Positions 45,590 to 48,500 of a DNA stretch of 64,000 nucleotides are shown here, piece by piece. Position numbers: made by a program. Within the stretch, counting starts at the first letter, position 1. Each line of letters begins with the position of its first letter. Location of the stretch: NCBI RefSeq assembly GCF_057098645.1, contig NZ_CM169472.1, one strand, 5' to 3'.

Positions 45590-48500
45590 TGAATGACACC
45601 AGCTTCGAAAACTGCATTAAGTGCACCGTCTGCACCACCGCCTGCCCAGTGAGCTGGGTGAATCCCGGTTATCCAGGACCAAAACAAGCCGGGCCGGATG
45701 GCGAGCGTCTGCGTTTAAAAGATGGCGCACTGTATGACGAGGCGCTGAAATATTGTATCAACTGCAAACGTTGTGAAGTCGCCTGCCCGTCCGATGTGAA
45801 GATTGGCGATATCATCCAGCGCGCGCGGGCGAAATATGACACCACGCGCCCGTCGCTGCGTAATTTTGTGTTGAGTCATACCGACCTGATGGGTAGCGTT
45901 TCCACGCCGTTCGCACCAATCGTCAACACCGCTACCTCGCTGAAACCGGTGCGGCAGCTGCTTGATGCGGCGTTAAAAATCGATCATCGCCGTACGCTAC
46001 CGAAATACTCCTTCGGCACGTTCCGTCGCTGGTATCGCAGCGTGGCGGCTCAGCAAGCGCAGTATAAAGACCAGGTCGCTTTCTTTCACGGCTGCTTCGT
46101 TAACTACAACCATCCGCAGTTAGGCAAAGATTTAATTAAAGTGCTCAACGCAATGGGTACTGGTGTACAACTGCTCAGCAAAGAAAAATGCTGCGGCGTA
46201 CCGCTGATCGCCAACGGCTTTACCGATAAAGCACGCAAACAGGCAATTACGAATGTAGAGTCGATCCGCGAAGCTGTGGGCGTAAAAGGCATTCCGGTGA
46301 TTGCCACCTCCTCAACCTGTACATTTGCCCTGCGCGACGAATACCCGGAAGTGCTGAATGTCGACAACAAAGGCTTGCGCGATCATATCGAACTGGCGAC
46401 CCGCTGGCTGTGGCGCAAGCTGGATGAAGGCAAAACGTTACCGCTGAAACCGCTGCCGCTGAAAGTGGTTTATCACACTCCGTGCCATATGGAAAAAATG
46501 GGCTGGACGCTCTACACCCTGGAGCTGTTGCGTAACATCCCGGGGCTTGAGTTAACGGTGCTGGATTCCCAGTGCTGCGGTATTGCGGGTACTTACGGTT
46601 TCAAAAAAGAGAACTACCCCACCTCACAAGCCATCGGCGCACCACTGTTCCGCCAGATAGAAGAAAGCGGCGCAGATCTGGTGGTCACCGACTGCGAAAC
46701 CTGTAAATGGCAGATTGAGATGTCCACAAGCCTTCGCTGCGAACATCCGATTACGCTGCTGGCCCAGGCGCTGGCTTAAACTCCTTTCTGATGCCCGGTA
46801 AGCATGTGGTTACCGGGCATTTTTGCGTACACGATTCCGTGCCCAGTGTATGCGTTGCAACGCAGTGAAAATTCCTCTGAAAACGTCTCGCAAAGGCTGA
46901 AACTGGCAGATGTCAAAGGCCTGGGATAACCGTAATGTCGCGTCATCATAAATATCAGGTGACGGACAACCATGACCGAATCAACAACCTCCTCCCCGCA
47001 TGATGCGGTGTTTAAAACCTTTATGTTCACACCCAAAACCGCACGGGATTTTCTCGAAATACATTTACCAGAACCACTGCGCAAGCTTTGCAACCTGCAA
47101 ACCTTACGCCTGGAACCCACTAGTTTTATTGAAAAAAGTTTACGCGCTTACTACTCGGATGTTTTGTGGTCCGTGGAAACCAGCGACGGTGACGGCTATA
47201 TCTACTGCGTGATTGAACATCAAAGCTCTGCAGAAAAGAATATGGCTTTTCGGCTAATGCGCTATGCCACTGCCGCCATGCAGCGTCACCTGGACAAAGG
47301 CTATGACAGAGTCCCGCTGGTGGTGCCGTTGCTGTTTTATCATGGCGAAACCTCGCCCTACCCGTACTCACTCAACTGGCTGGATGAGTTTGACGATCCG
47401 CAACTTGCCCGGCAGTTGTACACCGAAGCTTTTCCATTGGTGGATATTACCATCGTACCTGACGATGAGATCATGCAACATCGGCGTATAGCTCTGCTTG
47501 AACTGATTCAAAAGCATATTCGCGACCGCGATTTAATCGGTATGGTCGACAGGATCACCACGCTTTTGGTTAGAGGCTTCACTAATGACAGCCAGCTACA
47601 AACACTGTTTAATTATCTGCTGCAATGCGGCGATACCTCCCGTTTCACCCGTTTTATTCAGGAGATTGCCGAACGTTCACCACTACAAAAGGAGAGATTA
47701 ATGACTATTGCTGAACGGCTGAGGCAGGAAGGGCATCAAATTGGTTGGCAGGAAGGTAAATTAGAAGGTTTGCAGCAAGGTAAATTGGAGGGTCTGCAGA
47801 AAGGTAAATTAGAAGGTTTGCAGGAAGGCATGCATGAGCAAGCCATTAAAATTGCCTTGCGCATGCTGGAGCAGGGCTTTGAACGTGAGATTGTGCTGGC
47901 GGCAACCCAACTCACTGATGCTGATATTCCGAACTGTCATTAAAAGGAGAGATTGATGACTATTGCTGAACGGCTACGGCAGGAAGGACATCAAATTGGC
48001 TGGCAAGAAGGTAAATTAGTAGGTTTGCAGCAAGGTAAATTAGAAGGTTTGCAGGAAGGCATGCATGAACAAGCCATTAAAATTGCTTTGCGCATGCTGG
48101 AGCAGGGCTTTGATCGTGACCTGGTGCTCGCGGCCACCCAGCTAAGCGAAGCCGATCTGGCAGCGAATAACCACTAATTAACACAGGCCCACAGCCGATC
48201 CCCATGGGCCTTTGATATCAATAACTACCTTTTATGCGTGGCCCATTTTTGCCTGATTTAAACATCGCCAGTCGTTGATCCAGGGCATCGCTGTAGAGCA
48301 TCGTGTCAACGCCAACAGCGACAAAGTTCGCTCCCCACGCCAGGCATTGCTGCGCCATATCAGGAGCCACAGCCAGAAAGCCAGCCGCTTTACCCGCAGC
48401 ACGGATCCGCCGAATACTGGTTTCAATAATTCGCTGCACTTCCGGGTGCCCAGCGTTATCCGGGTAGCCCAACGACGCAGAAAGATCCGCAGGTCCAATA

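Follow-up and report, generated by a model that had tools for sequence, protein, structure and literature searches.

The window, a stretch of 64 kb of Escherichia coli DNA, contains a gene of the Rpn family whose 3' end is repeated directly downstream as the small open reading frame ypaA. This arrangement raises the question whether one small protein is made from two templates, whether it acts on the full-length nuclease and whether the downstream copy is a gene at all. At a probability of about 85%, we read the locus as a gene within a gene, in which rpnE would encode the nuclease as well as the nested small protein RpnE-S, while ypaA would be a diverged duplicate module. Our analysis itself showed the anatomy of the locus, its conservation and the selection on it, the similarity in fold and the variation in the population. 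Internal initiation in rpnE and the link to ypaA have been known since 2019, and the antitoxin function of RpnS proteins and the detection of YpaA since 2023. To this published work we add the conservation of both SD/ATG sites, the selection on the two modules, their age, the arrays they form and the mismatch of their repeat counts.

Identity of the gene and its full-length product

The window is 100% identical to E. coli strain 95-3192, and in the record NZ_CP027362.1, which matches the locus at 100%, the gene is annotated as rpnE between glpC and yfaU. The initial annotation had named it rpnB, which has to be corrected. RefSeq uses the gene name rpnE in the identical record as well as in K-12 (b2244), and among the RefSeq rows under the match all that name a gene say rpnE and none rpnB. 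Moreover, the 323-aa ORF scored 720 bits against a cutoff of 583 with the NCBIfam equivalog NF007418, and the synteny glpC-rpnE-(ypaA)-yfaU is conserved as in the rpnE (yfaD) orthologue. RpnB is the product of yfcI (YfcI) and RpnE is YfaD (PMC5350276). The name matters, as the toxicity and antitoxin data belong to the real RpnB, whereas none of the assays of Kingston et al. 2017 detected activity of K-12 RpnE (PMC5350276). The locus is the chromosomal E. coli rpnE-ypaA, which has already been published. Searching 5,426 complete genomes with rpnE plus ypaA as the query returned at least 99% identity in only 28 of them. In RefSeq the rpnE product is still labelled 'ISNCY family transposase'.

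The full-length gene (46972..47943, + strand) encodes RpnE-L, a protein of 323 aa. A YhgA-like PD-(D/E)XK nuclease domain forms its N-terminal part, and an Rpn helix-turn-helix tail its C-terminus. Pfam PF04754 (Transposase_31, YhgA-like) covers residues 8-209 (E=1e-87), TIGR01784 scored 178 bits against a cutoff of 52, and the RpnA model aligns with RpnE from 1-256 to 1-256. Kingston et al. reported that D11, D63, E82 and Q84 and also R94 and the PDDE motif are needed for the activity of RpnA (PMC5350276). In RpnA numbering all of these, including PDDE163-166, are present in the 323-aa translation. A PDB sequence search with full-length RpnE yielded nothing at E<=0.01. Matches of NCBIfam FliH and Pfam Yae1_N to the repeat tract described below were rejected as homology, since the tract is a low-complexity G/E/K/L/Q repeat.

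RpnE-L is only a putative toxin, because K-12 RpnE caused no toxicity, SOS induction or recombination phenotype in vivo, all three assays being negative (PMC5350276). In RefSeq, too, the K-12 protein is described as inactive. A caveat on these assays is that RpnE-S was unknowingly co-expressed from the same constructs (PMC10400941). Since every catalytic residue is kept in K-12 and the nested small protein was present in the assays, the 'inactive' status of RpnE merits a re-test.

The internal start and its downstream repeat

Near the 3' end of the rpn gene the initial annotation had placed an in-frame ATG preceded by a Shine-Dalgarno sequence at 47701, and we found it there. The Shine-Dalgarno block AAAAGGAGAGATTA of this internal initiation site, as read from the sequence, occupies 47687..47700 (+), with a perfect AAGGAG at 47689-47694 and a spacer of 6 nt to the ATG. 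The nested ORF rpnE-S (47701..47943, +) begins at the in-frame ATG 47701-47703, shares the stop codon 47941-47943 with rpnE and encodes 80 aa, the first 11 of which are those of the crystallised RpnA-S (PDB 7TH0). A 24-nt (2 x 12-nt) tandem repeat tract in rpnE and rpnE-S (47743..47828, +; TRF: period 24, 3.6 copies, 83% matches) encodes six four-residue units. These begin at residue 20 of the small protein; the published RpnS window lies 8-20 residues past the initiating Met.

Our sample comprised 26 E. coli loci, 19 of them with two copies, plus E. fergusonii and E. marmotae. The internal SD block was identical in 24/26 E. coli loci and the GGAG core was kept in the remaining 2; in E. fergusonii and E. 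marmotae the block is altered at one position only, immediately before the ATG (ATTG for ATTA). The earlier reading had made the internal start depend on SD conservation among orthologues, and the SD core and the ATG were kept in every orthologue sampled. In K-12, each of the five rpn genes has an internal initiation site marked by Ribo-RET and Onc112 profiling (bioRxiv 10.1101/520783; PMC10400941). Meydan et al. 2019 tied the internal rpnE product to YpaA (10.1101/520783), and SPA-tagged RpnE-S and YpaA were both detected in K-12 (PMC10400941). Within rpnE, a scan for consensus sigma-70 promoters was negative, and a relaxed scan gave one weak TG-extended candidate in rpnE (47447-47474) and one 5' of ypaA (47825-47852), to which we give no weight. 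As the scans gave none or weak candidates only, an internal promoter rests on the published K-12 dRNA-seq.

Directly past the rpnE stop, the SD+ATG block and the following ORF are repeated as ypaA, as the initial annotation had noticed. The window contains the 32-nt SD+ATG block in exactly two places (0 expected from 100 shuffles). Its second occurrence contains the ypaA Shine-Dalgarno block AAAAGGAGAGATTG at 47942..47955 (+), which overlaps the rpnE stop codon 47941-47943 and was kept in every sampled two-copy locus. E. fergusonii and E. marmotae likewise retain SD core and ATG at the nested as well as the downstream site. Then follows ypaA (rpnE-Ss; 47956..48177, +; ATG 47956, stop 48175-48177), encoding a free-standing RpnE-S paralogue of 73 aa. 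The ORF caller begins ypaA at TTG 47953; ATG 47956 is likely the true start, because the spacing between SD and TTG is only 3 nt and ATTAATG alleles lack the TTG. Aligned pairwise, the two copies (SD plus ORF) show a mean column identity of 88%; a single 24-nt gap falls within the repeat tract, and the 3' tail has diverged. The ungapped segments comprise 118 nt with 91% and 179 nt with 83% identity. The tandem repeat tract of ypaA (48008..48059, +; TRF: period 24, 2.2 copies, 92% matches) encodes four four-residue units.

At the protein level RpnE-S and YpaA are 78% identical. Residues 1-19 are the same and a central 17-residue block is also common to both, and the C-terminal tail of YpaA is unlike that of RpnE-S, with differences at 7/20 aligned positions plus one single-residue gap. 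As YpaA has four units against six in RpnE, ypaA is a diverged paralogue and not a second template of one protein. Thus, of the earlier proposal that a separate small protein is made from two templates, the separate product of the internal start stood, having been shown experimentally at the orthologous K-12 locus, whereas the identity of the two products did not, since they differ in length, repeat count and tail.

The ypaA gene is probably co-transcribed with rpnE and possibly translationally coupled to it. Between the convergent ypaA and yfaU a GC-rich, terminator-like hairpin (48185..48211, no strand assigned; fold -12.1 kcal/mol, z = -2.3) likely marks the end of the rpnE-ypaA transcript. 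An Rfam scan of the whole window returned nothing within the rpnE-ypaA feature.

Proteins 97-99% identical to YpaA carry precomputed PF27070 (HTH_Rpn_C) hits; in our local Pfam-A scan of YpaA PF27070 was not found. DUF4351 (PF14261), with which free-standing RpnS proteins of some species are annotated (Zhong et al., PMC10400941), was rejected for YpaA, as the Pfam scan gave only sub-threshold Yae1_N and RepB_primase_C. The AlphaFold model of YpaA, of moderate confidence (pLDDT 77), predicts helices at 3-49, 54-61 and 65-70. The top Foldseek match of this model in the PDB, and the only meaningful one, was RpnA-S 7TH0 (probability 1.00, TM 0.74, E = 0.038); by sequence the small protein matched 7TH0 weakly (E=0.19). 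PADLOC 2023, which is without an Rpn model, produced chance-level hits only.

Age, selection and recombination of the two modules

For this strain RefSeq records the downstream copy as 'incomplete; missing N-terminus', for K-12 as the pseudogene ypaA. The copy would then be a dead piece of a duplicated rpn gene and itself functionless, and the frameshifted ypaA tail of E. marmotae as well as the loss of the separate ypaA from many lineages are consistent with this. Nevertheless, we consider it very improbable. All 19 two-copy E. coli loci of the sample, and E. fergusonii too, have an intact ypaA ORF with its SD and ATG, and the YpaA protein has been detected in K-12 (PMC10400941). Within the first 19 codons, all 5 changes between the two copies of the window are synonymous and none is non-synonymous. 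Purifying selection acts on both modules, with a pN/pS of about 0.25 (0.23 for ypaA-type tails, which is much the same as the 0.28 for the rpnE-type tails of the nested copy), and therefore ypaA is not the pseudogene of RefSeq. The annotation thus files as truncated a gene which is intact, constrained and, in K-12, translated.

The duplication is old, with a pS of about 0.4. E. fergusonii and E. marmotae, too, have this tandem at the glpC locus, and the rpnE-ypaA tandem is older than the split of these species and E. coli. Gene conversion keeping the 5' halves alike was considered for this strain and rejected. Synonymous divergence is equally high in the head (5/12.3 sites) and in the tail (8.5/21.3 sites; pS 0.40, pN 0.074), and the identity of the head is higher because non-synonymous change is absent there. 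As pS is about 0.4 in both parts, there was no recent gene conversion in this strain.

Across strains the modules recombine into 1-, 2- and 3-copy arrays. Single-copy fusions of the rpnE N-terminus with a ypaA-type tail were found in O157:H7, B and other strains and make up ~42% of an evenly spaced genome sample. Their crossover points lie before the repeats, after the repeats or within the tail (L014, L015 and L036), and one three-module array (L034) carries a chimeric middle copy. Alleles have 0-8 repeat units, always in steps of 4 aa, and the counts of the two copies vary without co-variation. We suggest that ypaA goes back to an ancient tandem duplication of the SD-plus-RpnE-S module, which placed it directly behind the rpnE stop, and that the resulting direct repeats would allow repeat slippage and unequal crossing-over, which would give the 1-, 2- and 3-module arrays.

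The possible role of YpaA

Zhong et al. 2023 identified the small RpnS proteins as antitoxins against the full-length nucleases and renamed YpaA RpnE-Ss (PMC10400941). The RpnS proteins of RpnA, RpnB, RpnC and RpnP2 block their cognate full-length nuclease, and the number of four-residue repeats sets the specificity of RpnS-RpnL pairing (PMC10400941). Applied to our locus, the full ORF would give RpnE-L, a YhgA-like PD-(D/E)XK nuclease that ends in a helical tail, and the strong SD with the in-frame ATG 47701 would give RpnE-S, which is this tail alone. Following the Rpn family, the long first helix of RpnS would bind the identical segment of RpnL and block the nuclease; the pair would thus be a toxin-antitoxin system linked to phage defence, and the repeat number in the first helix would decide which S pairs with which L. 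By this analogy we infer that RpnE-S inhibits RpnE-L, and likewise infer any role of YpaA.

The initial annotation had proposed that the C-terminal small protein modulates the nuclease. The antitoxin function of the RpnS proteins of RpnA, RpnB, RpnC and RpnP2 (PMC10400941) supports this in general; a redundant modulator role of ypaA is doubtful, because one extra repeat abolished RpnS-RpnL cross-inhibition in RpnC. YpaA could be a second cognate antitoxin that binds and silences RpnE-L like RpnE-S and so raises the antitoxin dose. The shared first 19 residues and central block, the predicted fold matching RpnS, translation in K-12 (PMC10400941) and the position right behind the rpnE stop, which favours co-expression, point in this direction, as does the EPEC E2348/69 haplotype with equal counts of 4 and 4. 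We regard such redundancy as unlikely. Of 12 haplotypes, 11 had unequal repeat counts, namely 9/10 distinct ones in E. coli and those of E. fergusonii and E. marmotae, with 6 against 4 in the window, and in RpnC an additional repeat on either partner was sufficient to lose inhibition (PMC10400941). Moreover, the tails diverge as described above, and the separate ypaA is missing from ~42% of genomes. Judged by the published repeat rule, YpaA probably does not serve as a further, equivalent antitoxin source.

A slightly better, still tentative proposal is that YpaA is a non-cognate module. It could be a C-terminal cassette, whose tail would be swapped into rpnE by homologous recombination so that the specificity of toxin and antitoxin shifts together. 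Alternatively, as an orphan RpnS, it could pair with a different Rpn-L or with RpnE-S itself and not with the resident RpnE-L. Repeat counts varying independently in the two copies are consistent with both forms, as is purifying selection on ypaA, which implies that the protein itself matters. All recombination products have been observed as well, the fusions and the reciprocal three-module array. However, the observed fusions are one-way deletions and not reversible switching, pS of about 0.4 in head and tail argues against recent gene conversion in this strain, and no alternative partner is known. The mismatches are also those expected from independent drift, with a match chance of about 6% per haplotype computed from the sampled repeat counts, so that a sample of this size cannot show avoidance and gives no sign of selection for mismatch. 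That the counts of rpnE and ypaA never match was refuted by EPEC E2348/69. If YpaA were non-cognate, the 1-, 2- and 3-module arrays would be footprints of unequal crossing-over re-tooling the C-termini of toxin and antitoxin. Because the counts disagree in most strains, it is easy to test whether a free-standing RpnSs copy has any effect on the adjacent nuclease.

Our main reading, a gene within a gene followed by a diverged duplicate, agrees with the K-12 locus, where both sites carry this SD+ATG block as well and the two tail types are arranged alike, with the E-type nested and the Y-type free-standing. The alleles differ in that K-12 rpnE-S has 0 units (56 aa) and YpaA 1 (61 aa), compared with 6 (80 aa) and 4 (73 aa) in this strain. 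Like rpnE, RpnA-LS, RpnB-LS and RpnP2-LS combine a PD-(D/E)XK YhgA-like N-terminal domain with an in-frame internal start that yields the C-terminal tail. They also share the same 11-residue start of the small protein, and the long first helix with four-residue repeats and the three-helix fold, which are predicted here. For these three systems toxicity, complex formation and inhibition were shown, whereas RpnE was inactive on overexpression in K-12 (PMC5350276), and unlike rpnE none of them was described with a free-standing downstream copy in PMC10400941.

A comparable use of four-residue helical repeats is known from the TAEL repeats of EcoR124I and EcoR124II (cited in PMC10400941), whose number also changes specificity. 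There the repeat sets DNA target spacing in the specificity subunit of a restriction enzyme, whereas in Rpn it concerns protein-protein pairing. Another free-standing RpnS duplicate directly 3' of its parent rpn gene has the same arrangement as ypaA (PMC10400941). It is of independent origin, as downstream copies cluster with their own parent gene and not with each other (PMC10400941), and it occurs in some strains only, whereas the rpnE-ypaA tandem was already present before E. coli, E. fergusonii and E. marmotae diverged.

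Identity of the locus and its two small-protein modules

The 323-codon ORF at 46972-47943 (+) was labelled rpnB in the initial annotation, which is wrong, as the gene is rpnE. The region matches E. coli 95-3192 (NZ_CP027362.1) at 100% identity, and that record names the ORF rpnE, with glpC and yfaU on either side. Moreover, the NCBIfam equivalog NF007418 matches the ORF with 720 bits (cutoff 583), and by the definition of Kingston et al. RpnB is YfcI and RpnE is YfaD (PMC5350276). K-12 shares this layout, with rpnE (b2244) followed by ypaA (b4543). Pfam detects a YhgA-like Transposase_31 domain (E=1e-87), and the RefSeq/PGAP product label is 'ISNCY family transposase'.

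Within rpnE, an in-frame ATG at 47701 (+) lies directly behind AAAAGGAGAGATTA and leaves 80 codons to the stop. Its perfect SD core AAGGAG (47689-47694, +) is separated from it by a 6-nt spacer. A second copy of the SD block, AAAAGGAGAGATTG, directly follows the rpnE stop and overlaps the stop codon; behind it opens ypaA (+) with 73 codons, from the ATG at 47956 to 48177. In a pairwise alignment the two modules reach 88% column identity; the only gap, of 24 nt, falls in the repeat tract, and the 3' tails have diverged. The ungapped segments are 118 nt at 91% and 179 nt at 83% identity. Within the 64-kb window the 32-nt SD+ATG block has exactly two copies, with zero expected. The initial annotation had located and described the repeated module accurately. 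A duplicated pair of antisense ORFs, of 59 aa (47736-47915, -) and 48 aa (47991-48137, -), crosses the two repeat tracts; the repeat most likely generates them as a mechanical side effect, and expression of either is doubtful.

Conservation was assessed in K-12 and 26 further E. coli loci, the latter picked at regular intervals from two lists that rank 5,420 matching genomes by similarity. In 24 of these 26 loci the internal SD+ATG block is identical; E2348/69 (GGAGAT) and strain d1-58 (GGAGAGCTTAATG) have variants in which the GGAG core and the ATG are still intact. In every two-copy locus sampled AAAAGGAGAGATT[A/G]ATG precedes ypaA. E. fergusonii and E. marmotae keep both blocks and likewise carry the rpnE-ypaA tandem at the glpC locus. 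An SD unconserved among orthologs had been named beforehand as a refuting outcome; SD core and ATG are kept in the E. coli sample and in both other species. The rpnE gene of E. coli UTME-10 (L018 1501-3633) is interrupted by an IS2 on the 5' side of the internal start; this truncates the nuclease part, while SD, ATG and the beginning of the small ORF remain beyond the insertion.

Published products and activity of RpnE

The feature is a rediscovery, because it was already published by Meydan et al. and Zhong et al. In K-12, Meydan et al. saw Ribo-RET peaks at internal, in-frame start codons of all five rpn genes; they also noted that the product of the rpnE internal start resembles the separate gene ypaA, and that conservation of synonymous sites is enhanced near the internal start of yfaD (bioRxiv 10.1101/520783). 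Zhong et al. showed that the small RpnS proteins act as antitoxins: they bind the full-length RpnL nucleases, which are toxic, and block them, as tested for RpnA, RpnB, RpnC and the plasmid-borne RpnP2; SPA tagging detected RpnE-S, RpnE-L and YpaA, and ypaA was renamed rpnE-Ss (PMC10400941). The suspicion that small proteins inside rpn genes had been reported was therefore borne out by both studies. The interpretation in the initial annotation is supported in part: the proposed internal small protein stands, given the published K-12 starts and the RpnS antitoxins, but neither the gene name nor the idea of one protein made from two templates does. RpnE-S (80 aa) and YpaA (73 aa) are 78% identical, carry six and four four-residue units, respectively, and have unlike C-terminal tails, YpaA ending in ...FDRDLVLAATQLSEADLAANNH. 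For the K-12 pair, BLASTP of the extracted sequences gave 75% identity (46/61) rather than the 98% stated in the preprint (bioRxiv 10.1101/520783), because the tails differ.

Recombination, toxicity and SOS phenotypes were all absent for K-12 RpnE (PMC5350276), which RefSeq labels inactive. RpnE keeps D11, D63, E82, Q84 and R94 (RpnA numbering) as well as the PDDE motif, and mutation of D11, D63, E82 or Q84 inactivates RpnA. Since the catalytic residues are present and the nested small protein was co-expressed in the K-12 assays, masking by RpnE-S is a plausible explanation of their negative outcome.

No terminator was found between rpnE and ypaA; a hairpin lies 3' of ypaA at 48185-48211. A consensus scan found no promoter inside rpnE and a relaxed scan weak candidates only, so that the basis for an internal promoter is the published K-12 dRNA-seq cited by Zhong et al. 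(PMC10400941). The SD of ypaA shares nucleotides with the stop codon of rpnE, so translational coupling between the two genes is possible.

Selection, age and fold of ypaA

RefSeq/PGAP describes the downstream copy as 'incomplete; missing N-terminus', i.e. a truncated pseudogene, and K-12 ypaA as a pseudogene (compared at window 47941-48177, locus L001 4973-5206 and K-12 locus L003 1117-1302). Among the sampled records only one locus, L010, has a normal CDS annotation. We reject pseudogene status, as the ORF is intact (19/19 sampled two-copy E. coli loci), SD and ATG are kept and selection is purifying, with a pN/pS of 0.23 among ypaA-type tails versus 0.28 among rpnE-type tails. Comparison of the two window copies revealed five synonymous and no non-synonymous differences in the first 19 codons, and a pS of 0.40 and pN of 0.074 in the tail. 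A pS near 0.4 in both head and tail means that the duplication is old, in keeping with the tandem being present in further species of Escherichia, and speaks against recent gene conversion between the copies in this strain.

Of 268 small homologues from a database search, most carry PF27070 HTH_Rpn_C (Pfam); lengths across the set vary in 4-aa steps, corresponding to 0-8 repeat units. Two database YpaA homologues carry other in-frame duplications, an 11-aa internal repeat in P0069 and a duplicated HQIGWQEG in P0005; therefore, length variation is not limited to KLEG-type tetrads. In E. marmotae ypaA (L031 2501-2728) a frameshifted C-terminus, ...DRDLAARSHPAKRSRSGSE, replaces helices 2-3. This copy looks fixed in the species because it is found on many contigs, and the gene may be decaying there.

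The AlphaFold model of the window YpaA (pLDDT 77) comprises a long helix (3-49) and two short helices (54-61 and 65-70). Its sole meaningful PDB match was 7TH0, 'E. coli RpnA-S' (probability 1.00, target TM-score 0.74, E = 0.038), all others having E >= 2. By sequence, RpnE-S and RpnA-S have an 11-residue start in common and the remainder aligns weakly (E=0.19).

Repeat counts and recombination between modules

The specificity between S and L proteins is set by how many four-residue repeats the long first helix contains; lengthening RpnC-S or RpnC-LS by one repeat abolished inhibition, except where both partners were lengthened (PMC10400941). Given as rpnE and ypaA units, the window haplotype is 6,4, the K-12 type 0,1, and other E. 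coli haplotypes are 8,4; 8,6; 6,2; 5,2; 5,1; 1,4 and 5,0. EPEC E2348/69 has 4,4, E. fergusonii 5,2 and E. marmotae 2,5. These counts show no co-variation between rpnE and ypaA, unlike the nested pair RpnE-L/RpnE-S, which co-varies by construction. Counts were mismatched in 11 of the 12 haplotypes; this is no evidence that matching is avoided, since chance alone, calculated from the marginal frequencies, would match only about 6% of haplotypes. If the repeat rule published for RpnC also holds here, a YpaA whose count differs from that of RpnE-L would be expected to make a poor partner for it.

Single-module genomes made up about 42% of an evenly spaced sample (25/60 rows), including O157:H7, B, W and CFT073, in agreement with the 8,565 places that matched across 5,420 genomes. 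Loss of the rpnSs gene has been described to occur via deletion or fusion (PMC10400941). Each of the five single-module loci read joins the rpnE N-terminus to a tail of the ypaA type, with the crossover before the repeats in L014 and L028, after them in L015 and L027, and L016 as the fifth locus. A sixth, L036, whose contig is cut inside rpnE, has a module with a hybrid tail and therefore a crossover within the tail.

Another genome carries three C-terminal modules (L034 817-2253; GCA_002941285.1, PTMM01000004.1), and its rpnE differs from that of the window by only 12 nt. Behind the nested 6-unit copy come two free-standing genes, of 72 aa and 73 aa: a chimera with the head and repeats of ypaA but a tail of the rpnE type, then a ypaA-type copy. 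Such an array is expected as the reciprocal product of unequal crossing-over. We found no mention of it in the main text of Zhong et al. (PMC10400941).

Elsewhere in the window, Rfam detected the MicF sRNA at 8369-8462 (+; 116.8 bits), an ordinary feature of the ompC region, and three pairs of naRNA4 (CssrE) matches at 134-329 (+), 12122-12312 (-) and 35288-35446 (-).
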